From a virus: DNA of 64,000 nucleotides. The notes under the pieces were generated by a model. The model saw only the letters and a program-made list of their open reading frames with translations, did no database searches and had not been told where the DNA came from. Shown piece after piece: positions 8,345-54,794 of the stretch. A program made the position numbers and the translations under genes. How positions within the stretch are numbered: position 1 is the first letter of the stretch; the number at the start of each line of letters is the position of its first letter. The stretch lies in IMG/VR virus record IMGVR_UViG_3300034095_000847; one strand, given 5' to 3'.

Positions 8345-8524
8345 ATGATATCAGACCAAAATTACTTTAGACCCAGAGTAGATGAAAGAGTTTATGAAGA
8401 TGCAGTTAAAAAAGCCTCTTTTCTAACAGATAACATGTATGTAAAATTAACTAGTGGTTATACATTTGAATCATTGGTTAATGATTTAATTAATAAAGAC
8501 TTAAGGGATAAACAATATCCTTGA
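8345..8524 (+). CDS. Small hypothetical protein, 59 aa (not in the ORF track)
   Basis: ATG 2 bp after the PAAR stop; MISDQNYFRPRVDERVYEDAVKKASFL...KQYP* fills the gap. Confidence 0.55.
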   Translation: MISDQNYFRPRVDERVYEDAVKKASFLTDNMYVKLTSGYTFESLVNDLINKDLRDKQYP

Positions 8525-8570
8525 AAAACCTGGTATAACCAGTATATCACAAAAGTAAACGTTTGTAAAC
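8523..8570 (-). promoter_or_regulatory. Repeated element, copy 1: antisense sigma70/T4-early-like promoter
   Basis: Minus strand GTTTACA-17 bp-TATACT with extended TG; 46/48 identical to 54724-54771. Confidence 0.7.
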
Positions 8571-8579
8571 TGTTTTGTG

Positions 8580-10839: not shown

Positions 10840-13088
10840 TGTCAGATATTAAACCAAAATTATCATCATTAGTATCTGGACAACTTCCTGAATTTATTCG
10901 GGGAGATTACCAGACATTTGTTGCATTTTTGGAAGCATATTATGAATTTCTTGAATCTAATGTAAATACAGATTATAAAAGTTTAAAAGATATTGATAAC
11001 ACATTAGATTCTTTTATTCAATATTTTAAGCATGAAATTGCAATAAATTTACCTAATCTGCCTATAGATGAAAGGTTCCTTTTACAACATATAAGAGAAT
11101 TATATCGTGCAAAGGGAACAGAAGCATCTTTCAAATTATTATTCAGAATTTTATTTAAAAAAAATGTTGTAGTAGATTATCCATATAATAGTGTTTTAAT
11201 CCCTTCAGATGGTAAATGGATTCAAGACAAATCCATATTTGTACGTATTTCAAAAGGTACTCCTGATCTTATTGTTGGTAATACGGTAGATGTTATAACA
11301 TCTACCAAAACTTTTCCAATAACAATAAAAAGTTTTAAACCAATTGATCCTACTATTAGTGGTGATACACAAATAGTAGAATTATTTTATGATAAAGATT
11401 ACTTTAATACTATATCTGAAAATAACAAAATATTTTATCAAAATGAATTTGTTGCAGATGTATTATACACAACTACTAAAATAAATGTATTCGCCGGTGG
11501 AGTAGGGTTTAAACCTGGTCAAGTATATCCTGTAAGTTCAGGTAATGGTATAGGATCTATTGTAAAAATTAAATCTGTTGATAATGTTGGAGCAGTTAAA
11601 ACAGCAGAATTTATATCTTTTGGTGTTGGTTATGAAAGTAATTTTTATGCTTATATAACTTCAGATCAAGCAAAAAAGATAACATTTACTCAATTACCAT
11701 TTGTTATAGGTTCTTCAGGTTCTGGACCAGTAGCATGGAATGCTACATTTAGAGATAATACTGAAGAATTTATAGATTATGGTGTTATTACAAGACCAAA
11801 CTATAACTTAGATATAGCAACCCCTGCTTTAGGCGCGTTATATGTTGGAGATGTTGTACAAACATTTAATAATTCAACAACATATTCAACTAGTACAATT
11901 GATTCTACAGATATTTCTGTTCTTTATATTACTATAGGAGCAGAAGCAAAATACACAGGATATTTTAAAACTAATGATGGATTTATTAGTGATAGCATTT
12001 ATATTCAAGATAGTAAATATTTTCAAAAGTTCTCATATGTTCTTAAGATAGATGAACAACTAAGTAAATATGAATCATTTGTTAAAACATTAGTTCATCC
12101 TACAGGTACCTCTCTATTTGGTGAATATTCTATAACTAATGAATTTAATTTAACAGAATCTTTACAATCAATGATAAAGTTCTCAAATCTTGTATTAGAT
12201 GACAAGATTACAATGAGTGATAGTCATTGGTTACATTTTAGCAAATTATTGAATTATGAAAATGGTAATGCTACTTATGTAACATCTTCTATAAATAATG
12301 ACTGGGTTACTAGACCTAATGGAACTAATGGTGTTCAATTTAATGTTGCGTTAGTAGGAAGAGAAGCTACTACATCTACAGGATCAGTTGGTGTTTGGTT
12401 CCAAATAGCTCAAGTTGGTAAGCAATTAACATCAACTATTGGATCATTAGATAAGAAATTTGATATTACTCCAGTGGGTATATTATTATCTGGATATGCT
12501 GGTCAACTTGACAAGAAATTTGATATTGCTAATACAGGTAGTTCTATAACATTAAGTAAAAATACAGTTTCGCCACAACAAGCAATTAATATTAATGTAA
12601 CAGGATTTTCAACTATATCTAATGTTGATACCTTCTCAAGAAGTATGATAAAGGGATTAACTGGTAATAGTTCATCTTTATCAACTGGGATAACTGTTGG
12701 CGGTCAAGCACAAGGTATAATTGGAATTTCATTAGTTACTGCATTTGGTAATGAAAGTACTTCTATGACAGAAGTTAAATCTCTTACAGGTTTAAGTACA
12801 TCAACTAGTATTGGTTCTTTTGCACCTAGTATTATTATGACAGAGCAATTAGTTACTAATTCTGCATTAACTAGTATAGGATCTGTGTCTAAATATGTTA
12901 CTATATCAGTAAGTGGATTAGGATTGACATCTGGATTTGGCACATATAGTGAAGTAATAAATACTACATTAACAGATATTGCTACACCAAGTGATAGTGG
13001 TTATGTTGCATATAATGCTTATATATTCGGTCCTGATGTATATTTCAGTGATTCTACAGAATATTTCGAAGGCAAAACAAGTTTTTAA
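10839..13088 (+). CDS. Baseplate wedge initiator gp7-like with C-terminal ~20-aa repeats
   Basis: QLPEFI..DY..FV.FL.AYYEF, YRAKGT..SF..LFR.LF and IQDS.YFQ.FSYV...VHP.G motifs; follows gp6. Confidence 0.75.
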   Translation: MSDIKPKLSSLVSGQLPEFIRGDYQTFVAFLEAYYEFLESNVNTDYKSLKDIDNTLDSFIQYFKHEIAINLPNLPIDERFLLQHIRELYRAKGTEASFKLLFRILFKKNVVVDYPYNSVLIPSDGKWIQDKSIFVRISKGTPDLIVGNTVDVITSTKTFPITIKSFKPIDPTISGDTQIVELFYDKDYFNTISENNKIFYQNEFVADVLYTTTKINVFAGGVGFKPGQVYPVSSGNGIGSIVKIKSVDNVGAVKTAEFISFGVGYESNFYAYITSDQAKKITFTQLPFVIGSSGSGPVAWNATFRDNTEEFIDYGVITRPNYNLDIATPALGALYVGDVVQTFNNSTTYSTSTIDSTDISVLYITIGAEAKYTGYFKTNDGFISDSIYIQDSKYFQKFSYVLKIDEQLSKYESFVKTLVHPTGTSLFGEYSITNEFNLTESLQSMIKFSNLVLDDKITMSDSHWLHFSKLLNYENGNATYVTSSINNDWVTRPNGTNGVQFNVALVGREATTSTGSVGVWFQIAQVGKQLTSTIGSLDKKFDITPVGILLSGYAGQLDKKFDIANTGSSITLSKNTVSPQQAININVTGFSTISNVDTFSRSMIKGLTGNSSSLSTGITVGGQAQGIIGISLVTAFGNESTSMTEVKSLTGLSTSTSIGSFAPSIIMTEQLVTNSALTSIGSVSKYVTISVSGLGLTSGFGTYSEVINTTLTDIATPSDSGYVAYNAYIFGPDVYFSDSTEYFEGKTSF

Positions 13089-23168: not shown

Positions 23169-25094
23169 ATGGCTGCTATAACTACTCGATCAACTGCAGG
23201 AACAGGTGCAACGGTTAAAAATTCAACATTAACCAATGCTGAGGTTGATAACAACTTTATTAATTTAAATGTTGATATACAAACAAGACTATTAAAAACT
23301 GGTGGAACAAATTTATATATCGGTAGTCAAGCAAATTCTACAAGATTTCCAAATTCAATTACTGTATTTTCAAGTGTTGCTTCGGGTATTCAAAAAAACG
23401 AATCACATAATATTGGTTTAGCATCAGAAAATACAGGATCTTTTTTAGCTAAAACTATTGTTACAGGTTCATCAGGTGGAACTACTATTACACTTAGTGA
23501 TGTAGCAGGAATATATATTGGGCAAGTTGTTTCTGCAACTGGGGTAGCTAGTGAAGCTATTATAACAAATATTAATACAGGAACAAATGTAGTCACACTA
23601 TCTATTGCTAATACTGGTATTCCTTCAGGAACTGCTAATATCATAGCGTATGGCGTAGGTGCTTATGGTATAGGATATACTAGTGGTGGATGTACAGGTA
23701 TTGGTGTAATAGGTGAAGCTCATGTAAATATAAGTAGTGCTTCAGGAAGAGCAATTGGAGTTAAAGGATATTCTAATGATACTCATGCAAGCGGTTCTAA
23801 TATAGGTTTATATGGTTCTGCTGAAAATGGACTTACAAATTATAGTTTATATTTAAATGAGGGTGATATCTATAGTAAAAGCGCTGTAAATAAAACTTGG
23901 TATCTAAATTCAAATTTAACTTTTTCAAGTGTTAGTGGATCTTATAGCGTAACTATACCGCAATTAGTTTTAGGAATAGATTTAGCAGTTTCTCAAGGTG
24001 GAACAGGTGCATCTTCATTTACTACAAATGCTGTCTTACTTGGAAATGGCGGAGGTTCATTTCAAACTGTTTCTCCAGGTACAAGTGGAAATGTATTATT
24101 GTCAAATGGTAGTACCTGGATTAGTTCAACAGTATCATCATCTTTTGTAACAACTGCTTTAGGATTTACTCCATATAATTCTACAAATCCAAATGGATAT
24201 ATTTCTGGAATTACTTACGCTAATGTTATTAGTGCTTTAGGATTTACTCCTTATAATTCTACTAATCCTAGTGTATATATAACTTCAGGAGGAATTACTT
24301 ACGCTAATGTTATTAGTGCTTTAGGTTTTACTCCATATAATTCTACAAATCCAAATGGATATATTTCAGGAATTACTAGTGGTAATGTAACTACTGCTTT
24401 AGGATTTACTCCTTATAATTCTACAAATCCAAATGGATATATTTCTGGAATTACTAGTGGCAAAGTAATTACTGCTTTAGGTTTTACTCCATATAATTCT
24501 ACAAATCCAAATGGATATATTTCAGGAATTACTAGTGGCAAAGTAATTACTGCTTTAGGTTTTACTCCATATAATTCTACTAATCCTAATGGATATATAA
24601 CTTCAGCAGGAAGTGCTGATTATGCAAATAGTTCTGGTAGTGCTGATAGTGCAACAACATTTACTAGTACAACCCAAAATTCAAGATTTAAGTCTTTAGG
24701 TGTAGGTACTAATGCTTCAGAGGTAACTGGAGAAATTAGAGCAACTGGAAATATAACTGGATTTTTTTCTTCTGATAAAAAATATAAAGACAATATTAGA
24801 GACATTGATGGTGTTTTAGAAAAAGTAGTTTCAATAGGTTCTAAATATTTTGATTGGACAGATGATTATATTAATGATCATGGTGGAGAAGATGGATACT
24901 TTGTTCAAAAATCTGACTTTGGAGTAGTTGCTCAAGATGTTCAAGCAGTATTTCCACAGGCAGTAAAACAACGTGAAGATGGTTCTCTTGCGGTAGATTA
25001 TGCAAGACTTGGTGTTTTGTCCTTTGGAGCTATTTCTGAATTGCAAAAACAAATAAATGAATTAAAAGAAATAATTAATAAAATTACTTCTTAA
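23169..25094 (+). CDS. Tail fibre/spike with tandem repeats and C-terminal Peptidase_S74 intramolecular chaperone
   Basis: LT.AE.D.NF..L N-terminus; ALGFTPYN repeats; SSD.K.K.NI, FDW, GV.AQDV..VFP.AV, LAVDY and terminal coiled coil. Confidence 0.85.
   Translation: MAAITTRSTAGTGATVKNSTLTNAEVDNNFINLNVDIQTRLLKTGGTNLYIGSQANSTRFPNSITVFSSVASGIQKNESHNIGLASENTGSFLAKTIVTGSSGGTTITLSDVAGIYIGQVVSATGVASEAIITNINTGTNVVTLSIANTGIPSGTANIIAYGVGAYGIGYTSGGCTGIGVIGEAHVNISSASGRAIGVKGYSNDTHASGSNIGLYGSAENGLTNYSLYLNEGDIYSKSAVNKTWYLNSNLTFSSVSGSYSVTIPQLVLGIDLAVSQGGTGASSFTTNAVLLGNGGGSFQTVSPGTSGNVLLSNGSTWISSTVSSSFVTTALGFTPYNSTNPNGYISGITYANVISALGFTPYNSTNPSVYITSGGITYANVISALGFTPYNSTNPNGYISGITSGNVTTALGFTPYNSTNPNGYISGITSGKVITALGFTPYNSTNPNGYISGITSGKVITALGFTPYNSTNPNGYITSAGSADYANSSGSADSATTFTSTTQNSRFKSLGVGTNASEVTGEIRATGNITGFFSSDKKYKDNIRDIDGVLEKVVSIGSKYFDWTDDYINDHGGEDGYFVQKSDFGVVAQDVQAVFPQAVKQREDGSLAVDYARLGVLSFGAISELQKQINELKEIINKITS
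24147..24606 (+). repeat. Six tandem ~78-bp (26-aa) coding repeats V..ALGFTPYNSTNPNGYISGIT
   Basis: Counted directly in protein and DNA. Confidence 0.95.
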
Positions 25095-34307: not shown

Positions 34308-34532
34308 ATGGCAATTACAAAAACACAAAAATTAATTAGTATTACTTATCGAGAAGATATGGTAACTATACCTCAACAGTTATATGTTGAATACCTAATT
34401 ACTCTTGATGACCCAGATGATTCTTCATTACCTGTTTATACTAATAAAGGTTATACATTGGTAGAAGATTCAGATATTAGCAATGAAGAAGAGTTGGTCC
34501 AAAATATGTTCAATTTGGTGTTTAATAAATAG
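34308..34532 (+). CDS. Small hypothetical fibre-region protein
   Basis: AAGGAG RBS; 74 aa. Confidence 0.65.
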   Translation: MAITKTQKLISITYREDMVTIPQQLYVEYLITLDDPDDSSLPVYTNKGYTLVEDSDISNEEELVQNMFNLVFNK

Positions 34533-34553
34533 TATATAAAACTAATTATTGGA
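34497..34553 (+). repeat. Direct repeat copy A (57 bp, 55/57 identical to 35914-35970), containing a late promoter
   Basis: GTCCAAAATATGTTCAATTTGGT.TTT.ATAAATAGTATATAAAACTAATTATTGGA. Confidence 0.95.
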
Positions 34554-34595
34554 ATAGTAAGATGACAATTAATACAAGAGAAGGACTCAAACAAT

Positions 34596-35281: not shown

Positions 35282-35914
35282 ATGGCAGACTTTTTAACAA
35301 ATAAAAATTTATTAGGTGTCGTTGGCAACTCATTTTCCAATTTTTATGGGGCAAGTGAGTATTGTCCTGCATCCGGTCCAATAAGCATGAGTCAAATGGG
35401 TACGCAAGCGACAACAAATGGTGATGGTAGTCCAGCAACTATTTATCCGATTGGTAGTGGTGTTGTTGACGGTGGATATGTGGTAGGTAATTATAATTCT
35501 GGCGATGATGTTCGTCGAATCATTTGGAATGGCTTATACGCTGCGAAGGCGTACAAAACCGCTAATACTACTAATACTGTCATTACCACAGCAATGTCGC
35601 AGACAGCTACTTACCCTGCTTCAAACTATGCGTATCTTACAGCTCCAACCGGCACTTGGAGCTTTATAGCTCCCCCCGGTTTTGGCGGTCCCACGATCAG
35701 ATATGCATTTGCCGTCTCTGGCAGATTTAGAGGTTTAGCAGGGGCTAGTCCATACATGTCTGGCACTAATGTATGGACTAGCGGTACGCAATCTACGGCT
35801 ACTACTGCTCCTTACATAGATATTACCACTGGGGTATCAAGCACGGCTACCAAAACAACATTAAATTATTCATACCCATTGAAACTAGGAGGAGCCCAAT
35901 TTTGGTACTTGTAG
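35282..35914 (+). CDS. Putative fibre-tip adhesin (gp38-like N-terminal motif, possible C-type-lectin-like C-terminus)
   Basis: PASGPISMS motif; IGS...GGY..G; VWTSGTQ...A......G.....K pattern; higher GC than neighbours. Confidence 0.45.
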   Translation: MADFLTNKNLLGVVGNSFSNFYGASEYCPASGPISMSQMGTQATTNGDGSPATIYPIGSGVVDGGYVVGNYNSGDDVRRIIWNGLYAAKAYKTANTTNTVITTAMSQTATYPASNYAYLTAPTGTWSFIAPPGFGGPTIRYAFAVSGRFRGLAGASPYMSGTNVWTSGTQSTATTAPYIDITTGVSSTATKTTLNYSYPLKLGGAQFWYL

Positions 35915-35970
35915 TCCAAAATATGTTCAATTTGGTATTTGATAAATAGTATATAAAACTAATTATTGGA
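35914..35970 (+). repeat. Direct repeat copy B, containing the gp13 late promoter (GATAAATA)
   Basis: Matches 34497-34553. Confidence 0.95.
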
Positions 35971-35978
35971 TCATTAAG

Positions 35979-36959
35979 ATGGCAACAGTAAATACAAGGG
36001 AAGGTTTAAAACAATATGCATTAAGAGCATTAGGTGCACCAGTGCTTGAAATAAATGTTGATGATGATCAACTAGAAGATCGTATTGATGAAGCAGTAGA
36101 ATATTGGAGATTATATCATCCAGAAGGTATTGAACAAGTATATGCCAAATATATGATTACTGCTTCTGTGTTAAATCTTACAACTAATAATGCTGCATCT
36201 TTTGGTGATGCAACTGAAGTTACTGGAGCAACATCTGGTGCTACAGCATTTGTAGTTTTAGATGAAGGTACTAGAACAGAATCAAGAACATCTACAGGAA
36301 ATGTTCTTCTTGTAGTTAATATAACCGGTAATTTCCTTGCTGGAGAAACTATTTCAAATGATATAATTTCTGCTACATTAAGTTTAACTTCTCCAGTAGT
36401 TAAAGGTGTATTTGATAATAGATATATTACGCTTCCTGATTTATTGTATGGTGTGACTAGAGTTATTCCTATGTCTCAAGCATCTTCTTCAAAGAATATG
36501 TTTGATTTACAATATCAATTACGTTTGCATGACTTATATGATGTTACATCTACATCAATGATCTATTATAAGACAGTTATGCAACATCTTGATATGTTGG
36601 ATTTCGAACTTAATGCCAAACCTGATATTCGGTTTAATAGATTTACAAACAAACTATATCTTGATATTAAATGGCAAGCAGATGCTCTTATTGGTCAATA
36701 TCTAATGGTTGATGGTTATGGTGCTTTAGATCCTGTCACTGCTCCTAGAATGTGGGGAGAGTTATGGTTAAAACATTATACAACTGCATTGTTTAAAAAG
36801 ATGTGGGCAACTAATATCAAAAAGTTTTCCGGTATACAACTTCCAGGTGGTGTAACATTAGATGGTGATTCTCTATATAGAGAGGCAGTTGATGAGATTA
36901 AAGATTTAGAAGATGAATTGATGACAAAGTCTGCTCCATTAAGTTGGTTCATGGGATAA
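35979..36959 (+). CDS. gp13: Neck protein
   Basis: LK.Y.LR.LGAPV.EINVDD.Q..DRIDEA and K(F)SG.QLPGGVTLDG motifs. Confidence 0.95.
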   Translation: MATVNTREGLKQYALRALGAPVLEINVDDDQLEDRIDEAVEYWRLYHPEGIEQVYAKYMITASVLNLTTNNAASFGDATEVTGATSGATAFVVLDEGTRTESRTSTGNVLLVVNITGNFLAGETISNDIISATLSLTSPVVKGVFDNRYITLPDLLYGVTRVIPMSQASSSKNMFDLQYQLRLHDLYDVTSTSMIYYKTVMQHLDMLDFELNAKPDIRFNRFTNKLYLDIKWQADALIGQYLMVDGYGALDPVTAPRMWGELWLKHYTTALFKKMWATNIKKFSGIQLPGGVTLDGDSLYREAVDEIKDLEDELMTKSAPLSWFMG

Positions 36960-48681: not shown

Positions 48682-50085
48682 ATGGAATTAAATCGTTCTG
48701 CCCTTTTAGAAAAATGGGCTCCTGTAATTGACGCTGATGGCGCTCCTGCTATTAAAGACTTTACTCGTCGTGGTGACTTAGCTGTTATCCTAGAAAACCA
48801 ACAACGTGAAATGAATGCTGCTAGTCAAGCTAACGGTATGCTTTTCGAAGCTGGTACAGGCGGTGTTTCTACTAACATTGGTGGTGGTGGCAACTATGGT
48901 GTCAATACTACTGGTACTGGTACATACAATGCTGGCGCTGCTGGTACTGGTGGTGTAGCTGGTTTTGATCCTGTGTTGATTAACTTAGTACGTCGTGCTA
49001 TGCCTCAGTTGATTGCATATGATGTTGCTGGTGTTCAACCAATGACTCAACCAACTGGTTTGATTTTTGCAATGAAATCTCGTTACACTAGTCCAAGTGG
49101 AACAGAAGCATTGTTTAACGAAGCAAACACTAGCTTTACTGGTACTTCAGGCGCTACTGGTACTGATCCTACCGGCGCTACTGGTTTATCAACTGGTTCA
49201 TACCAAACTGGTTTAGGTTTGTCTACTGCTAATGCTGAAATTTTAGGTTCTACTTCAGGTGAAGCATTTCCTGAAATGGCATTCTCAATTGAAAAAACTT
49301 CAGTTGTTGCTAAAACTCGTGCATTGAAAGCTGAATACTCTATCGAATTAGCACAAGACTTGAAATCAGTTCATGGTCTTGACGCTGAAGGCGAATTAAG
49401 CAAAATTCTTTCTACTGAAATTCTTGCTGAAATTAACCGTGAAGTTATTCGTACTATCTACACTGTTGCTAAACAAGGTGCTGCTGTTGGTACTGCTACT
49501 GCTGGTATTTTTGATCTTGACGTTGACTCTAATGGTCGTTGGTCAGTTGAAAAATTCAAAGGTTTGTTGTTCCAAATCGAAAGAGAAGCTAACGCTATCG
49601 CTCAACAAACACGTCGTGGACGTGGTAACTTCATCATCTGTTCTTCAGATGTTGCTTCTGCTTTAGCAATGGCTGGTGTATTAGATTATGCTCCTGCTCT
49701 TTCTACTGGTTTGAATGTTGATGAAGCATCTACTACTTTTGCTGGTATCTTAAACGGCAAATATAAAGTTTATGTTGATCCTTACACTGGTGGTAACAAC
49801 CCATCTGCTGCTGGTCTACAATTCTTTACTGTAGGTTATAAAGGTACTTCTGCGTTTGACGCTGGTTTGTTCTATTGCCCATATGTTCCATTGCAAATGG
49901 TTCGTGCGGTTGATCCACAAACTTTCCAACCTAAAATTGGCTTCAAAACTCGTTACGGTATGGTTGCTAACCCAATGGTTGATATTGATGACGCTTCAAT
50001 GTCTGCTACTTCAAATGCTGACAACTCAATGACAGCTCGTAAAAATTATTATTATCGGATCGTGAAAGTTACAAATTTAATGTAA
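48682..50085 (+). CDS. gp23: Major capsid protein
   Basis: DP.LI.LVRR.MP.LIA, GVQPM..PTGLIFA, R.LKAEYS.ELAQDLK..HGLDAE.EL and QPKIGFKTRYG motifs. Confidence 0.99.
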   Translation: MELNRSALLEKWAPVIDADGAPAIKDFTRRGDLAVILENQQREMNAASQANGMLFEAGTGGVSTNIGGGGNYGVNTTGTGTYNAGAAGTGGVAGFDPVLINLVRRAMPQLIAYDVAGVQPMTQPTGLIFAMKSRYTSPSGTEALFNEANTSFTGTSGATGTDPTGATGLSTGSYQTGLGLSTANAEILGSTSGEAFPEMAFSIEKTSVVAKTRALKAEYSIELAQDLKSVHGLDAEGELSKILSTEILAEINREVIRTIYTVAKQGAAVGTATAGIFDLDVDSNGRWSVEKFKGLLFQIEREANAIAQQTRRGRGNFIICSSDVASALAMAGVLDYAPALSTGLNVDEASTTFAGILNGKYKVYVDPYTGGNNPSAAGLQFFTVGYKGTSAFDAGLFYCPYVPLQMVRAVDPQTFQPKIGFKTRYGMVANPMVDIDDASMSATSNADNSMTARKNYYYRIVKVTNLM

Positions 50086-50116
50086 TAAAATCAATTACTT
50101 AGGTAATTTTAAAATT

Positions 50117-50143
50117 AGAAGGGTCTTTTGACCCTTCTTTTTT
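50117..50143 (+). terminator. Intrinsic terminator after gp23
   Basis: AGAAGGGTC-TTTT-GACCCTTCT plus T tract. Confidence 0.9.
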
Positions 50144-50176
50144 ATTTTGATAGATTAATGGCTTTAATAAATCATT

Positions 50177-50260
50177 AATAAATAAGTTGTAGATCACGGA
50201 TCCCTCAATCCTATCTACTCTAAACATTCTAACAACTATTAAGGAACAGTTATGTCCAGC
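50177..50260 (+). ncRNA. Conserved structured leader, copy 1 (late promoter, two-stem hairpin, RBS hairpin), upstream of an endonuclease
   Basis: Aligns to 52108-52192 with compensatory base changes. Confidence 0.6.
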
Positions 50261-51043
50261 ACAAATATATATTCAATATATCTTATAACAAATTTAATCA
50301 ATAATAAGAAATATATTGGTTATACATCAAATAAATTAGGTCATAGATTTAATGACCATTGTAAAACTACCAAACCAAAATATCAAGAAAGATCTCCTTT
50401 ATCTTTTGCTATTGAAAAATATGGCAAACACAATTTTTCTTATAATGTTATTTTGCAATCTAATGATTATGAATATTGCAGATTAATAGAAACTGATTTT
50501 ATTATTCAATATAATTCATTGACTTCTACTCAAGGAGGTCATGGTTATAATATAGATAAAGGCGGAAGGGGTCATAAAAGATCACCTGAAACTATTGAAA
50601 AACATAGACAAAAAATAAAAGGTAGACCTCAATCAGAAGAACATAAACTAAAAAAAGGGTTTAAATCGGGTAATCAAAGTGGTAAAAAAAATAAAGGTAA
50701 GACTCGTACAGAAGAGCAAAGAAAAACATATAGTGAAATGATGAAAAATAATATATCATCTGGAAAAAGATTAGCTTGTGGGGTTGACAGAGATTGGAAA
50801 AATGACTATCCAGAATCATTAAAAAAGATGAAACAAACAAAATATAATAATAGAATAATAAACAATAAATTTAAAAATGTAGTAATTAAAAATATAATAA
50901 CACAAGAATTACATCAACTAAACCATAATTATCAAGATTTCTTTAAAGAACATAACTTAAATAATTTTATGGCTAAATGTATAAAAAATAATGCATGTAA
51001 TATAAAAGGTTTTATGTTAGTTTCTTATGAATTAAATGGATAA
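50252..51043 (+). mobile_element. Free-standing GIY-YIG homing endonuclease (Seg-like) with NUMOD3-like repeats
   Basis: SIY.ITN.IN.K.YIG.T, R...H, E..FI..YNS, GYN motifs; basic KG..RS.E repeats; inserted between gp23 and gp3. Confidence 0.9.
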
Positions 51044-51048
51044 TTAGT

Positions 51049-51070
51049 GGGGCCGAAAGGCCCCTTTTTT
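51049..51070 (+). terminator. Intrinsic terminator
   Basis: GGGGCC-GAAA-GGCCCC plus TTTTTT. Confidence 0.9.
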
Positions 51071-51116
51071 ATGTCAGAAATATATAATAAATAGTAAAAC
51101 ACTATCAGGTACTATA

Positions 51117-51647
51117 ATGGCAATAACAACTACATGTCCGTTTCCAACAAATATAAATCCACTATCAAGTAATGGGTTTAATTTTTCTATTTCAAAATTA
51201 CCGGAAGTATCATTCTTTTGTCAAGAAATTAATCTTCCAGGTATGTCTTTACCTACATTTGAAGTGAACACTCCTTTATCGGCTTTGCCATTTAGTGGGG
51301 AAATACTTTCATTTGAAGATCTAAATATACAGTTTATTATAGATCAAAATATGAGTAATTATATTGCTGTATATAATTGGATGATAGGACTTGGTTTTCC
51401 AGAAGATAATAATCAATTTACTGATTTTATTAATTTACAAGATACAGGGTATAGTAGAACAAGTAAAGAATATTCTGATGCTACTTTGCAAATATTAGGA
51501 AGTAATAATCTACCGGTAAAAACTGTAAAGTTTATAGATATTCTACCATTGAATTTAAGTTCAATGAATTTTCTATCTACAAATACAGATGTATCATATT
51601 TAGTTGGGAATGTAACATTTAAAATAAGTAGATACGAATTTATATAA
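51117..51647 (+). CDS. gp3: Tail completion/sheath stabiliser
   Basis: N.LS..GF.F....LP.V.FFCQ...LPG, F..D..M.NY...Y.W and SDATL.IL motifs; AATAAATA at 51086. Confidence 0.92.
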   Translation: MAITTTCPFPTNINPLSSNGFNFSISKLPEVSFFCQEINLPGMSLPTFEVNTPLSALPFSGEILSFEDLNIQFIIDQNMSNYIAVYNWMIGLGFPEDNNQFTDFINLQDTGYSRTSKEYSDATLQILGSNNLPVKTVKFIDILPLNLSSMNFLSTNTDVSYLVGNVTFKISRYEFI

Positions 51648-51661
51648 TTTTTGAGGATATT

Positions 51662-52102
51662 ATGGCTACAATTGATGAACTTTTATCAGAATGGGATGAC
51701 GATTCTGTAATGGACGACAATCATATCTCGAATGAATCCATTCGAGTTCCAAAGTTGCATGCTAAGTATATAAGATATTTAATGCAGGCAAAACTTAAAG
51801 TTACAAAATATAATAATGATTATAATGTTCTAAAAAAGACTAAGTTTAGATACTATAGAGGCGAACTTTCAAGAGAAGAATTGTCTACCTTGCAATGGGA
51901 ACAATGGTTAGGTGTCAAACCTATGAAGAATGAGATGGATCAATTTCTTGATGGTGACACTGATCTTAACAATATGAAAGTTAAAATAGAATATTTACAA
52001 ACTATGAGTTACCTACTTGAATCTATCCTAGGTCAAATAAAAGCTAGAGATTGGCAATTAAAAACCGTTCTAGAACATAAAAAGTTTTTAGCTGGAAATT
52101 AA
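51662..52102 (+). CDS. uvsY: Recombination mediator
   Basis: W..DS..D, ES...P.LH.KY, YY.G, D.DL and R.WQ.K....KF..G motifs. Confidence 0.92.
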   Translation: MATIDELLSEWDDDSVMDDNHISNESIRVPKLHAKYIRYLMQAKLKVTKYNNDYNVLKKTKFRYYRGELSREELSTLQWEQWLGVKPMKNEMDQFLDGDTDLNNMKVKIEYLQTMSYLLESILGQIKARDWQLKTVLEHKKFLAGN

Positions 52103-52107
52103 AAATA

Positions 52108-52192
52108 TATAAATAAGTATAGGTCACGGAACTGCAATTCCTACCTATTCTAAACATTCTAACAACTATTACAAGGAACAGTTATGTCCAGC
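52108..52192 (+). ncRNA. Conserved structured leader, copy 2
   Basis: TATAAATA, then ATAGGT-CAC-GGAA-CTGCAA-TTCC-T-ACCTAT and the shared linker/RBS. Confidence 0.6.
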
Positions 52193-52876
52193 GAAACTAT
52201 ATATCAAGAAATAATTCCAACATATCTCTATATAAAACAACATTCAATTACTGGTCTAAAATACTTTGGTAAAACAACCAATGATCCTTATACCTATAAT
52301 GGATCTGGAGTTTATTGGAATGATCATATTAAAAAGCATGGTAAAGAACATATAGTTACATTATGGGTGTCTAATCTATTTCATGATAAATCTATTGTTG
52401 ATTATGCTTTACATTTCTCAGAAGAGAACAATATTGTAGAATCCAAAGAATGGGCAAACCAAAAACCAGAAAATGGTTTAGAAGGCGGGGCAACTACTAA
52501 TGGAAAAATATGGATTAATAATGGTGTAACTAATTTGTATATACATAAATATGATCTTATACCACTAGGTTATAAAAAAGGAAGATTGTGCAAATTTAAT
52601 GACCCTAATTTTCAAAGGGAAATGTCTTCTAAGGTAGATAGGATTAAACAATCAAATGCTATGAAACAAAAATGGAATGAAGGAACGTTTATTAGAGATC
52701 ATTCTAAATGTGGTAAAAAAGGTGCAGATAATGTCTCAAAAAGACCTGAAGTTAGAAATAAACTGTCTATAGTCGCTAAAAATAGACCCCTGATAACGTG
52801 TCCGCATTGTACTAAAATAGGAATAACCTCTCCTGGAATGTTTAAACACCATTTTGATAATTGTAAAAATAAATGA
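52184..52876 (+). mobile_element. Free-standing GIY-YIG-like homing endonuclease with C-terminal Zn-finger-like motif
   Basis: PTYLYIK.H..TGLKYFGKT..PY.Y.GSG..W..H.KKHG, WINNG and CPHC...HFDNC motifs; inserted between uvsY and uvsW. Confidence 0.8.
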
Positions 52877-54360
52877 TTAAAGTTGAAAAATTTAATGAAT
52901 CTTATATTAGAATATTTTCTGATAAATCCATTGAACAAGAACTATCTGATTTCTTTAAATTTAGAGTTAAAGGATATCAATATATGCCAGCATATAAAGC
53001 TGGCATGTTTGATGGGTTTGTTAGACTGTATAACCTGCAAACTAAAACTCTTTATGCTGGTTTATTACAGTATGTTAAAGAATTTGCAAATAGAAATGAT
53101 TATGAATTAACTATTGGCAAAGGTATAGAGAATTCAAATACATATTCTGAAAAAGATATTCAATTATTTGCAGATAGTCTTAATTTATCTGCTAGAGGTC
53201 AACCTATATCACTTAGAGATTATCAAGTAGATGCTCTTTTAAAAGCTCTTAATAGAAATAGAGTAACATTATTAAGTCCTACCGCTTCAGGTAAATCCGG
53301 TATTTTGTATGCTATAATGAGATGGCATCTAAATGCAAATAGAAAATTACTTCTGATAGTACCTAATACCATGCTTGTTGAACAAATGTATTCAGATTTT
53401 GCCGATTATTCAAGCGCAAATGGATTTGATGTTGAACATAATGTACAAAAACTATATTCAGGATTTACAAAGGATTTTACTAAAAATGTTCTTATCTCTA
53501 CATGGCAATCATTAATTACTATAAAACAAAAATCCTTTTATCAGCAATTTGATGTGGCTATGGTTGATGAATGTCATCTTGCTAAAGCTGCTTCTATATC
53601 TGGTATTATGGAAAAATGTGTTAATACCAAATACAGGATTGGGGCTACAGGTACTATTGACGAAAGTTCTAAAACTAATAAACTAACACTTGAAGGATTA
53701 TTTGGACCAGTATATCAGGTAACTACAACCAAAAAATTAATGGATGAAGGTTCAGTAGTTAATCTAAAAATCAAGCAATTAATTCTTAAATATGATGAAG
53801 AAACATGTAAGATGTTTAAAGGTACTGAGTATATTAAAGAACTTGATTGGTTAGTTACAAATCCTGTCAGAAATAAATTTATACGGAATTTAGCAATATC
53901 TACTACAGGCAATACTCTAGTACTTTTCAACTATGTACAAAAACATGGCAAAGTAATATATGAAGATATAAAAAATAAAGTACATCAAGATAGACCTGTA
54001 TTTTATATTCATGGAGGAGTTGATACAAAAGATCGTGAAGAAATTAGAAATGTATGCAGTAAATATAATAATGCAATAATAGTAGCCTCGTACGCGACTA
54101 TGAGTACAGGTACTAATATGCCTTCAATAGAAAATATTATATTTGCTCATCCTTCAAAATCTAAAATAAGAAATCTTCAATCTATTGGTAGAGGTCTACG
54201 TTTAAATGATGGTAAAAATGAATGCCGGCTTTTTGATTTAGTTGATGATCTACATTGGAAGTCTTGGAAGAATACCACGTTAACCCATGGCATAGAGAGA
54301 TATAAGATATATATTACGGAGCAGTTTTTAGTTAACATAGTTGAAGTGGTGTTGAAATGA
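52873..54360 (+). CDS. uvsW: SF2 DNA helicase
   Basis: RDYQ, SPTASGKS, DECH, GATGT and LQSIGRGLR motifs. Confidence 0.97.
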   Translation: MIKVEKFNESYIRIFSDKSIEQELSDFFKFRVKGYQYMPAYKAGMFDGFVRLYNLQTKTLYAGLLQYVKEFANRNDYELTIGKGIENSNTYSEKDIQLFADSLNLSARGQPISLRDYQVDALLKALNRNRVTLLSPTASGKSGILYAIMRWHLNANRKLLLIVPNTMLVEQMYSDFADYSSANGFDVEHNVQKLYSGFTKDFTKNVLISTWQSLITIKQKSFYQQFDVAMVDECHLAKAASISGIMEKCVNTKYRIGATGTIDESSKTNKLTLEGLFGPVYQVTTTKKLMDEGSVVNLKIKQLILKYDEETCKMFKGTEYIKELDWLVTNPVRNKFIRNLAISTTGNTLVLFNYVQKHGKVIYEDIKNKVHQDRPVFYIHGGVDTKDREEIRNVCSKYNNAIIVASYATMSTGTNMPSIENIIFAHPSKSKIRNLQSIGRGLRLNDGKNECRLFDLVDDLHWKSWKNTTLTHGIERYKIYITEQFLVNIVEVVLK

Positions 54361-54719
54361 TTGAGCATGAATATATTACCTTAAAGTTAGTTAATGGAGA
54401 TAACGTCATATGTGTAAAAATAGGTGAGGATGATCATAAATTTATAATTATGTACCCTATCCAAATGAAAACCGTCAACTTTGATTTTGAAGGTAAAAAT
54501 AAAGAAGTATTAGCCGGTTCTCCTTGGTGTTCTTTTACAGATGAACAAATCTTTACAATATGGAAAGATGATGTCATAATCATTAAACCTTTAAATGAAT
54601 CTACTATTGAATACTATAAACGTCTTATAGATGTTCAAATAGGTCAATTAGTATTACCTGAAGAGGAATATGATTTAGAAACAATTAGTTTTAATCTATC
54701 TAATGAAACAATACATTAA
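54357..54719 (+). CDS. Conserved hypothetical protein (Sm-like fold candidate) between uvsW and gp55
   Basis: KLVNG...I, PW and YY pattern; ends in TIH as is common for this gene. Confidence 0.65.
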   Translation: MIEHEYITLKLVNGDNVICVKIGEDDHKFIIMYPIQMKTVNFDFEGKNKEVLAGSPWCSFTDEQIFTIWKDDVIIIKPLNESTIEYYKRLIDVQIGQLVLPEEEYDLETISFNLSNETIH

Positions 54720-54723
54720 CCTA

Positions 54724-54771
54724 GAAAAACCTGGTATAACCAGTATATCACAAAAGTAAACAGTTGTAAAC
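54724..54771 (-). promoter_or_regulatory. Repeated element, copy 2: antisense early-like promoter
   Basis: Minus strand GTTTACA-17 bp-TATACT; first 38 bp identical to 8523-8560. Confidence 0.7.
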
Positions 54772-54794
54772 AGTAAAATAAAAATATATTTTAA

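Follow-up and report, generated by a model that had tools for sequence, protein, structure and literature searches.

Two cassettes before two homing endonuclease genes

The window analysed here is a stretch of 64,000 nucleotides of a T4-like phage (IMG/VR virus record IMGVR_UViG_3300034095_000847). As listed in Table 1, it contains two cassettes of about 100 bases, each heading a different homing endonuclease gene. A first-pass annotation of the window had pointed to an element shared by the two genes, and this was confirmed, the sequences being as it described. The hairpin (6 bp/CAC/4 bp/6-nt loop/4 bp/T/6 bp) is found in both copies, and three of its stem pairs differ compensatorily between them. 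A late-promoter box precedes the hairpin in both copies, and ATGTCCAGC follows it. The two leaders are identical across 42 nt, and the 22-mer TCTAAACATTCTAACAACTATT occurs exactly twice in the 64 kb, against a chance expectation of 0.01. The unit had been taken to be 75 nt long; the conserved unit is about 100 nt and reaches about 22 nt into the ORF. Two finer pairings suggested at that stage did not hold up. The hairpin GGA(A)CA-GTTA-TGTCC, formed by the ribosome site and the start codon, is not conserved among the relatives. A pairing of TCCT with AGGA was not supported: in the inner stem, TCC makes up the 3′ side and is paired there, and the sequence of this side varies (ATCC, TTCC, TATC, CTCC, and AACC).

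Table 1. Features of the two cassette loci (positions are those of the window)
Feature	Position	Strand	Remarks
Intrinsic terminator between gp23 and cassette 1	50117..50138	+	
Cassette copy 1	50177..50275	-	Full match to model R2, 95.8 bits, E 4e-22, positions 1-100, all helices intact
Sense late-promoter box of HEG1, AATAAATA	50177..50184	+	Its complement forms the U-rich tail that follows P3 in the predicted antisense RNA
P3 copy 1	50189..50218	either	6 bp, 3-nt internal loop CAC/GUG, 4 bp, 6-nt loop, 1-nt bulge
P1 copy 1	50220-50227 (sense CTAAACAT) x 50252-50259 (sense ATGTCCAG)	-	8 bp including two G-U
P2 copy 1	50234..50251	-	7-bp hairpin, one G-U on the minus strand; loop CCUU
HEG1	50252..51043	+	263 aa, GIY-YIG homing endonuclease
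Predicted antisense start, copy 1	~50260	-	
Backward late-promoter-like box copy 1, AATATATA	50266..50273	-	One mismatch to the family consensus N-ATAAATA
Intrinsic terminator after HEG1	51049..51064	+	
Cassette copy 2	52107..52207	-	Full match to model R2, 96.4 bits, E 2.8e-22
Sense late-promoter box of HEG2, TATAAATA	52108..52115	+	Begins 5 nt past the uvsY stop codon (52100-52102)
P3 copy 2	52119..52148	either	
P1 copy 2	52150-52157 x 52184-52191	-	P2 enclosed
P2 copy 2	52164-52170 x 52177-52183	-	Loop complementary to the Shine-Dalgarno sequence
HEG2	52184..52876	+	230 aa, homing-endonuclease-like
Predicted antisense start, copy 2	~52192	-	
Backward box copy 2, GATATATA	52198..52205	-	

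The two proteins are dissimilar overall, as had been noticed; the BLASTP match between them (E 0.011) is confined to the first 50 aa. HEG1 has a GIY-YIG catalytic domain (PF01541, E 4.6e-7, above the cut-off; phrog_314, E 8e-25). HEG2 has no Pfam match, a weak match to phrog_655, and no match to solved structures. It has a C-terminal zinc motif (CPHC...H.DNC), and its stop codon overlaps with the start codon of uvsW. A GIY-YIG-like Y-x-Y...Y-x-G motif is present at both N-termini, while the hhalign comparison of HEG2 with the HEG1 family gave a probability of only 45% over 26 columns.

A family of cassettes linked to homing nuclease genes

Pattern scans of IMG/VR and covariance models yielded 99 distinct cassette versions from uncultured T4-like phages, with three to seven copies per phage genome. 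The covariance-model search proposed in the first-pass annotation did recover homologs. Scans in which the hairpin was not specified and scans in which the leader was not specified converged on the same architecture. The final three-helix antisense RNA model, R2, aligns the 99 distinct cassettes. A tally of the downstream genes, also proposed earlier, showed that every cassette having an ORF is located at the start of a homing nuclease gene of the GIY-YIG, HNH, EndoVII-like, or another type; the ORF families are GIY-YIG, several HNH, EndoVII-like, and phrog_3339. The idea of a portable module that includes a covarying structured RNA and carries different nuclease genes is supported.

Two relatives of the phage, L240 and L243, whose UvsY proteins are 97% and 91% identical, have neither the nuclease genes nor the cassettes. 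Since the close relatives lacking the nuclease genes also lack the cassette, the cassette and the nuclease move together. The left edge of the second insert is the forward box, 5 nt past the uvsY stop codon, and at the empty site of L240 the uvsY and uvsW genes overlap as TAATG. The terminator after HEG1 is probably the right end of the insert carrying HEG1. Between nearly identical phages, an identical cassette was also seen with a mosaic nuclease behind it.

The first-pass annotation had not recognised a named RNA family in the cassette, and none is present in Rfam: when 49500-53500 was run through cmscan on both strands (E up to 10), neither cassette was overlapped by a match. A blastn search of cultured phage genomes with the cassette gave no match either, which carries little weight for a short AT-rich query.

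Three helices covary and pair on the antisense strand

Three covarying helices were found, P1, P2, and P3, the last of which is the hairpin of the first-pass annotation. In 85 distinct relatives, 827 of the 842 cells of P3 are Watson-Crick, all ten pairs covary, and none of 500 shuffles matched the observed score. When the three helices are read together as an antisense fold of 25 pairs, 97.4% of the cells are paired, changes on both sides occur in 23 pairs, and there are 487 double-change cells. None of 500 shuffles reached the observed level, and slid controls were 29-45% paired. A MAFFT alignment, which was not fitted to the model, was 97.8% paired with 18 covarying pairs.

The strand was assessed with identical columns and the same 25 pairs on both strands. 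The antisense strand has 1898 Watson-Crick, 258 G-U, and 58 mismatched cells, whereas the sense strand has 1898, 13, and 303, respectively, and is 86.3% paired. The difference lies in P1 (98.1% paired on the antisense strand versus 78.9% on the sense strand) and P2 (93.5% versus 73.2%), which together have 44 mismatches on the antisense strand versus 284 on the sense strand. All seven pairs of P2 covary, with 93 G-U cells on the antisense strand versus two on the sense strand. In P1, six of the eight pairs covary across the subtypes, with the swaps CTAAAC-AT/AT-GTCCAG, -GC/GC-ATYCAG, -TT/AA-GTTCAG, -CT/AG-GTCCAG, and CTAATCAT/ATGACCAG. The conservation of TCTAAACAT and ATGTCCAGC is explained by P1 and the other added helix forming on the opposite strand. 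P3 is nearly strand-neutral (98.7% and 97.2% paired on the sense strand); with hardly any pairs other than Watson-Crick, it can form on both strands, and it may also be active in sense transcripts.

In copy 1 of the window, the 3′ sense arm of P1, ATGTCCAG, consists of the start codon and 5 nt; P1 surrounds P2 and a 6-nt linker, and the CCUU loop of P2 is complementary to the HEG1 Shine-Dalgarno sequence AAGG(A).

Two other explanations were considered and rejected. Mutational bias does not account for the G-U asymmetry, because the wobbles are fixed states (P1 position 3 in 95 of the 99 cassettes) and not scattered polymorphisms. A small antisense peptide (the minus-strand ORF at 50099-50227, 42 aa) is not supported either: its AUG lies within P1 and is missing in subtype B, and what covariation preserves in the stems is pairing, not codons.

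Two late-promoter boxes face each other

In all cassettes, 3-6 nt separate a forward box, N-ATAAATA, from P3 downstream of it, and the window's own late genes have ATAAATA 23-37 nt ahead of their starts. The conserved "Ile-Tyr" codons of the nuclease ORFs coincide with a second T4-type late-promoter box (ATAAATA), which faces backward and lies 5 nt before P1. Each position of the backward box is conserved in 93-98% of the cassettes, a figure inflated by the fact that about half of them were gathered with a pattern requiring ATTTAT. In the subset found without reference to the box, it is exact in 14 of 23, and most of the others are one base off. In 97 of the 99 cassettes, the box is followed by exactly 5 nt and then G-CUGG. 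This spacing is constant although the distance between the start codon and the box ranges from 4 to 36 nt; six cassettes have the box in a frame other than that of Ile-Tyr, and TATTTAT is retained in two of the four cassettes without an ORF. Protein conservation was rejected as the reason for the conserved ATGTCCAGC and ATTTAT, as TCCAGC precedes the start codon in subtype B and the spacing of the box is kept in other frames.

The lineage of this phage has TATATAT instead of the consensus ATAAATA as the backward box (both copies in the window and a third copy in the nearest genome). Since the window's own late genes use ATAAATA, the backward promoter may be weak or inactive in this phage, though the fold is fully intact. 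The scan for promoters and terminators reported no -35/-10 pair at the cassettes, and the boxes are of the late ATAAATA type. On the antisense strand, P3 is followed by a U-rich tail, A-Y-Y-U-U-U-W-U-U-U-A-U. The 3′ end of the RNA is uncertain because a simple terminator scan did not call P3 and the tail a terminator.

A proposed cis-antisense RNA

I propose that the cassette is the source of a cis-antisense RNA of about 90 nt, which covers the ribosome site of the nuclease gene and restrains the nuclease; I put the probability of this reading at roughly 0.6. Each cassette would be the 5′ end of a mobile homing-endonuclease unit, with two facing T4-type late promoters separated by about 90 bp. 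From the forward one, the nuclease mRNA would be transcribed. The backward promoter, usually within the Ile-Tyr codons, would start the antisense RNA 5 nt on, at the conserved G of GCUGGACAU. This RNA would fold into P1 (8 bp between the complement of the start-codon region and the complement of TCTAAACAT), P2 (a hairpin of 7-8 bp exposing the anti-Shine-Dalgarno sequence CCUU or UCCU in its loop), and P3, followed by the U-rich tail complementary to the forward box. In the nuclease mRNA, the whole 5′ UTR, the ribosome site, and the start codon have their perfect complement in the predicted RNA. I infer that the backward box fires, that the RNA ends about 90 nt on, and that it pairs with the mRNA, perhaps from the P2 loop, to cause less translation or cleavage; convergent transcription could contribute interference. 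The potentially harmful nuclease would thus be held low late in infection. Both promoters are late, and the joint switch-on of a gene and its repressor is unexplained; a role in dosage is assumed.

The arrangement recalls RNA-OUT of IS10/Tn10, a small stable antisense RNA whose outward promoter lies inside the first codons of the transposase gene and faces the gene's own promoter. RNA-OUT is complementary to the 5′ end of the mRNA, the ribosome site, and the start codon. The two systems share a nuclease gene of a mobile element and, as a prediction in the cassette, facing promoters and a folded antisense RNA over the ribosome site and the start codon. In contrast, they have no similarity in sequence or structure, and the cassette has gp55-type late boxes, a predicted RNA of three helices, and homing endonucleases.

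A precedent is CfrI of cyanophage S-PM2, an experimentally detected antisense RNA of a T4-like phage (Millard et al. 2010, cited in PMC2984593 and PMC5931967). CfrI is annotated as starting in the 5′ part of the free-standing homing endonuclease gene F-CphI, crossing the 5′ UTR, and entering the upstream gene. Like the proposed cassette RNA, it has its antisense start inside a homing endonuclease gene of a T4-like phage. In contrast, CfrI is confined to one locus, is about 200 nt long, and differs in sequence, and it was not described as a portable covarying family. Model R2 had no match (E up to 10) in 120-170 kb of S-PM2, which includes CfrI, and the F-CphI leader differs by eye from the cassette.

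Other readings of the cassette

The antisense RNA may be made and yet serve a role other than repression, such as protection from RNase E by the duplex, insulation of the upstream essential gene from antisense transcription, or action in trans on the other copies. In cyanophage infection, an antisense duplex is reported to shield mRNA from RNase E (PMC3113571), and the 42 nt of leader identity would make cross-reaction of the RNAs of the two window copies possible. Nothing speaks directly against such roles, but an antisense RNA over the ribosome site and the start codon usually points to repression, and I regard them as rather unlikely.

The first-pass annotation had seen the structure as a leader of the endonuclease mRNA and had pointed to the I-TevI type of control. 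Neither view was borne out, as the extra helices P1 and P2 pair well on the opposite strand only. In the I-TevI type, a sense hairpin buries the ribosome site, and the late start is downstream of the 5′ arm of this hairpin, a geometry unlike that of the cassette. The predicted sense late start lies within the 5′ arm of P3, so that an I-TevI-type leader does not fit. In the T-even endonuclease genes (I-TevI, I-TevII, I-TevIII, segB, and Aeh1 mobE), as in the cassette, a late promoter is directly upstream and an RNA structure is near the ribosome site (PMC3014915, PMC2988022). The T-even hairpins are on the sense strand, with the Shine-Dalgarno sequence in the stem and the 5′ arm upstream of the late start (PMC3014915, PMC2988022). 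In contrast, the helices of the cassette are selected on the antisense strand with the complement of the Shine-Dalgarno sequence in the P2 loop; P1 and P2 are wholly downstream of the predicted sense start, and the Shine-Dalgarno sequence is not stem-paired on the sense strand.

A longer mask of the T-even kind was also weighed. In read-through transcripts, the forward box UAUAAAUA would pair with UAUUUAUA and close a long hairpin over the ribosome site, the second box being a pairing arm and not a promoter; late transcripts would lack the 5′ arm and be translated. Such masking is established for the five T-even genes above (PMC3014915, PMC2988022), and the forward and backward boxes are indeed mutually complementary. 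However, eight A-U pairs around an interior of about 90 nt are very weak and are unused in the minimum-energy folds of the read-through RNAs. Where the forward box is CTAAATA, the second box is still TATTTAT, which indicates no compensation. The mask also leaves unexplained the G-U asymmetry of P1 and P2 and the fixed 5-nt spacing between the box and P1. It is thus quite improbable as an explanation of the cassette, but a mask and an antisense RNA could coexist. The same kind of reading was given to similar motifs by Dassa et al. (2009), who found hairpins upstream of 15 of 16 free-standing endonuclease genes at "fractured gene" loci of marine metagenomes, likewise in the setting of T4-like phages, ten of them with a late-promoter box (PMC2677866). 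They described two mutually complementary conserved motifs and TATAAATA in the 5′ UTRs and read them as a sense translational hairpin (PMC2677866). Compared by description, these hairpins are probably the same cassette or a related one; the 2009 study contains no strand analysis, family model, or antisense promoter (PMC2677866).

A sense-strand riboregulator would be another explanation, in which the hairpin and the leader act in the endonuclease mRNA on translation or stability, e.g., as a 5′-terminal stabiliser or a protein-binding site. P3 would suit it, being nearly all Watson-Crick, foldable on the sense strand, and located where the predicted late transcript has its 5′ end, and the A/C-rich linker TCTAACAAC before the Shine-Dalgarno sequence could aid ribosome loading. 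However, the usual 5-nt spacer would place the sense start 1-3 nt inside the 5′ arm of P3 and truncate the hairpin in the late mRNA. P1 and P2, which account for the other conserved blocks and have the excess of sense-strand mismatches given above, also speak against it, as does the conserved TCCAGC, which precedes the start codon in some subtypes but follows it in others. I consider this reading very unlikely.

The bottom strand might instead fold as single-stranded DNA during replication or recombination and serve as a signal for the shuffling of nuclease genes, as in PeSLs or integron attC sites. As G-T is the best-tolerated mismatch in DNA, the same strand asymmetry would be expected, and the multi-copy occurrence of the cassette, its place at the left edge of an insert, and the mosaic nuclease behind an identical cassette would all fit. 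PeSLs are promoter and stem-loop repeats mediating shuffling in T4-type phages, and PeSL/PmSL resemble the cassette as multi-copy motifs of a promoter and a stem-loop flanking variable genes (PMC2839356, PMC4122927). In contrast to the cassette, PeSL/PmSL have early sigma-70 or middle promoters and a terminator stem-loop, and have no tie to endonucleases (PMC2839356, PMC4122927); P1, P2, and a second, opposed promoter are absent from them. A signal in DNA is a poor candidate: the cassette is built like a transcription unit, with a consensus promoter box exactly 5 nt ahead of the first helix and a U-rich stretch past the last one; it has no associated recombinase, and the P2 loop is always anti-Shine-Dalgarno, which is meaningful for RNA only.

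Meaning for phage homing endonucleases

How free-standing homing endonucleases are restrained in phage genomes is poorly known, and a review of T4 described the control of its twelve free-standing enzymes as largely uncharacterised (PMC2790892). I see about even odds for a broader statement of the proposal: that mobile homing-endonuclease units in T4-like and jumbo phages are bounded on their 5′ side by an unnamed large family of structured cis-antisense RNAs, starting from a gp55-type late promoter in the Ile-Tyr codons and acting as the element's own dosage governor. If this is true, one portable cassette, in about 100 sequence-distinct versions before at least four nuclease families, would be a general and testable answer. 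Homing endonucleases of unrelated folds would share a portable RNA control device, as insertion sequences carry RNA-OUT, and phage biology would gain a new structured RNA family. The Met-Ser-Ser-x-x-Ile-Tyr start common to unrelated endonucleases would reflect a promoter and a helix in its codons rather than a motif of the protein. In annotation, the cassette would also show where mobile nuclease units have their 5′ edge, and the marine "fractured gene" hairpins of 2009 would be reinterpreted.

The cassettes and their surroundings

The window derives from a T4-like myophage, and two genomes (G001 and G002) carry a phage contig near-identical to it. The same type of cassette lies 5′ of both homing endonuclease genes, HEG1 and HEG2, as the first-pass annotation had proposed: the 22-mer TCTAAACATTCTAACAACTATT is found at exactly two places in the window, where 0.01 occurrences would be expected. 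Its hairpin, here called P3, has one layout in both copies (6 bp, CAC, 4 bp, loop, 4 bp, T, 6 bp), and three base pairs have changed in a compensatory way from one stem to the other; on both points the annotation was right. The likeness of the two copies extends past ATGTCCAGC, about 22 nt into the ORF. At the head of each cassette is a T4-type late-promoter box (the forward box).

Genes and cassette elements of the window
Feature	Position	Sequence or family
gp23	48682-50085	
Cassette copy 1	50177-50275	
Late-promoter box, start of cassette 1	50177-50184	AATAAATA
HEG1	50252-51043	GIY-YIG
gp3-like gene	51117-51647	
uvsY	51662-52102	
Cassette copy 2	52107-52207	
Late-promoter box, start of cassette 2	52108-52115	TATAAATA
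HEG2	52184-52876	
uvsW	52873-54360	

The window holds other repeats. A 62-nt direct repeat (8512-8573 and 54713-54774, the second site intergenic; 90% identical) contains a sigma-70-like promoter, TTGAAA, 17 nt and TATATC, with an inverted repeat CCTGGTATAACCAGG-like sequence in the spacer, and may be a PeSL-like early-promoter cassette or an operator. A 72-nt repeat (34497-34568 and 35914-35985; 92% identical) runs from the end of one ORF through a late-promoter box (TAATAAATAG) into the leader and start of the ORF that follows, and is probably a sign of tandem paralogous structural genes. A unit of 78-84 nt occurs as seven tandem copies at 24051-24676, inside a large ORF and amid many internal repeats (24-33 kb), as is typical of fibre or collagen-like structural proteins.

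Related cassettes and the hairpin P3

IMG/VR was searched by four pattern scans with different anchors: the leader core; the hairpin core and tail; the leader, RBS and start, with the hairpin unconstrained; and the promoter box, start and ATTTAT, with both hairpin and tail unconstrained. All four returned one common architecture, and the hairpin was present in every true match of the hairpin-agnostic scans. A covariance model of the hairpin (R1) added more diverged cassettes, including second and third copies within the same loci. Across 85 distinct sequences, 827 of the 842 cells of the ten P3 pairs are Watson-Crick; each of the ten covaries, and no shuffle reached the observed score. Thus, the covarying hairpin of the annotation is real and under selection. 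Its internal GYG loop and purine bulge are conserved, as is the linker GUUAGA of the cassette.

Complete phage records carry 3-7 cassettes each. The ORFs starting inside them encode GIY-YIG, several groups of HNH, EndoVII-like and phrog_3339 homing endonucleases. Outside the window, contig C1 of G001, the phage contig nearest to it, has a third cassette of the short subtype B (10969-11050, locus L224) at the 5′ end of a HEG2-like gene encoded on the opposite strand.

Strand of the fold

Is the structure a leader of the endonuclease mRNA, as the annotation had it? Three sequence features pointed away from a sense-strand leader. First, among the rare non-Watson-Crick cells of P3, A-C (11 cells) outnumbers G-U (2 cells) on the gene strand, and A-C there is G-U on the opposite strand. 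Second, TCCAGC and ATTTAT keep a spacing of 6 nt whether the start codon falls before TCCAGC (subtype A, ATGTCCAGC) or after it (subtype B, TCCAGCATG), so this conservation lies at the nucleotide level rather than the protein level. Third, the late-promoter box, when reverse-complemented, reads ATTTAT(A).

Two extra helices emerged from an alignment of 76 cassettes in the antisense orientation. In P1, CUGGACAU, which complements the start codon and 5 nt, is paired with AUGUYUAG, which complements the conserved tail CTARACAT; pairs 3 and 4 are G-U, and the helix covaries between subtypes (-AT/AT-, -GC/GC-, -TT/AA-, -CT/AG- and CTAATCAT/ATGACCAG). P2 is a G-U-rich hairpin of 7-8 bp whose loop (CCUU, UCCU or CUCC) is complementary to the Shine-Dalgarno sequence. 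In A4, a MAFFT alignment of 38 antisense sequences unfitted to any model, the three-helix structure is 97.8% paired, 18 of 25 pairs covary and none of 500 shuffles was as good. R2, the model built from A4, scored 95.8 bits at cassette copy 1 and 96.4 bits at copy 2, both on the minus strand, with no other match in the window. A5, in which R2 aligned 99 distinct cassettes, is 97.4% paired (slid controls, 29-45%), with covariation in 23 of 25 pairs and a double change in 487 cells; being fitted to R2, it favours the structure, and the unfitted A4 gives the same picture.

The same A5 columns hold 1898 Watson-Crick cells on either strand, but 258 G-U and 58 mismatched cells on the antisense strand versus 13 and 303 on the sense strand. 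The asymmetry stems from P1 (98.1% paired in antisense, 78.9% in sense) and P2 (93.5% and 73.2%), P3 being almost strand-neutral. The mRNA leader of the annotation is thus not upheld. The fold may alternatively be one of the bottom-strand DNA instead of an RNA. In the classical T-even scheme, the ribosome site is buried in a sense hairpin whose 5′ arm lies ahead of the late start (PMC3014915, PMC2988022); of the three features that define it, the cassette lacks two. Dassa et al. (2009) described hairpins, TATAAATA and a pair of motifs complementary to each other 5′ of marine phage endonuclease genes, and interpreted them as a sense hairpin of the T-even kind (PMC2677866). They probably saw the cassette without resolving it, because two facing boxes would mimic their two motifs exactly.

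Two facing late-promoter boxes

The antisense strand has an ATAAATA box (the backward box; each position 93-98% conserved in 99 cassettes). The spacer after this box is exactly 5 nt long in 97 of the 99; next come a G (96 of the 99) and then P1. The tail 3′ of P3, A-Y-Y-U-U-U-W-U-U-U-A-U, is the complement of the forward box and its spacer. T4 late promoters have a box centred near -10, with the start about 6 nt past it. This rule places the predicted start of the antisense RNA at GCUGG, one base ahead of P1, and that of the sense mRNA 1-3 nt into the 5′ arm of P3.

The backward box encodes an in-frame Ile-Tyr in 89 of 95 cassettes; six use another frame (e.g., Met-Ile-Phe-Ile) with the box position unchanged. 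It lies between 4 and 36 nt from the start codon, and two of four cassettes lacking an ORF retain TATTTAT. Among 23 cassettes collected without a box criterion, 14 have the exact ATTTAT and most others differ by one base. In the phage lineage of the window, TATATAT replaces TATTTAT in all three cassettes, while the late genes of the window have ATAAATA boxes; the antisense promoter may thus be weak in this lineage, with the fold intact.

Mobility of the cassette with its gene

At two closely related loci (L240 and L243; UvsY 97% and 91% identical), neither of the endonuclease genes nor either cassette is present. There, a terminator and a late promoter stand between gp23 and gp3, and uvsY and uvsW share the overlap TAATG. 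In the window, insert 2 begins with the forward box, 5 nt past the uvsY stop codon, and ends at the overlap of the HEG2 stop codon with the uvsW start codon. Since the empty sites lack gene and cassette together and insert 2 starts at the forward box, the cassette is the 5′ end of the mobile unit. The HEG2-uvsW overlap, ATGA (52873-52876), stands in for the TAATG of the empty site (L240 1224-1229), so that insertion of the HEG2 unit preserves translational coupling into uvsW.

The gp23 terminator and spacer (50086-50176) are wholly unlike the empty site (L240 156-215), while gp23 and gp3 share 98-100% identity, a pattern that fits a co-conversion tract carried in with HEG1. HEG1 and its counterpart at L010 (5905-6690) form a mosaic in phages elsewhere 99-100% identical: the catalytic half (residues 1-130) is about 95% identical, the C-terminal DNA-binding half only about 45%, and the cassettes ahead are identical. 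This suggests that the target-recognition half was swapped behind an unchanged cassette.

A few cassettes have lost the ORF. Four (L222, L227, L233 and L160 9021-9105) have no intact ORF behind them, two of which keep both boxes and all helices; the four may be remnants after nuclease-gene loss or free-standing copies of an RNA gene.

A candidate cis-antisense RNA

The cassette gave no match in Rfam, in line with the annotation, which recognized no named RNA family. The proposed RNA would functionally resemble IS10 RNA-OUT as well as CfrI of cyanophage S-PM2, which is an expressed RNA (PMC2984593). It shares homology with neither: Rfam gave no match and R2 found none at the S-PM2 CfrI locus.

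The best-supported reading of these sequences is that the cassette would encode a cis-antisense RNA of about 90 nt. Driven by the backward late promoter, it would complement the nuclease mRNA fully across 5′ UTR, ribosome site and start codon, and would expose an anti-Shine-Dalgarno sequence in the P2 loop. The antisense RNA would thereby lower translation of the nuclease, to which convergent transcription may add interference.
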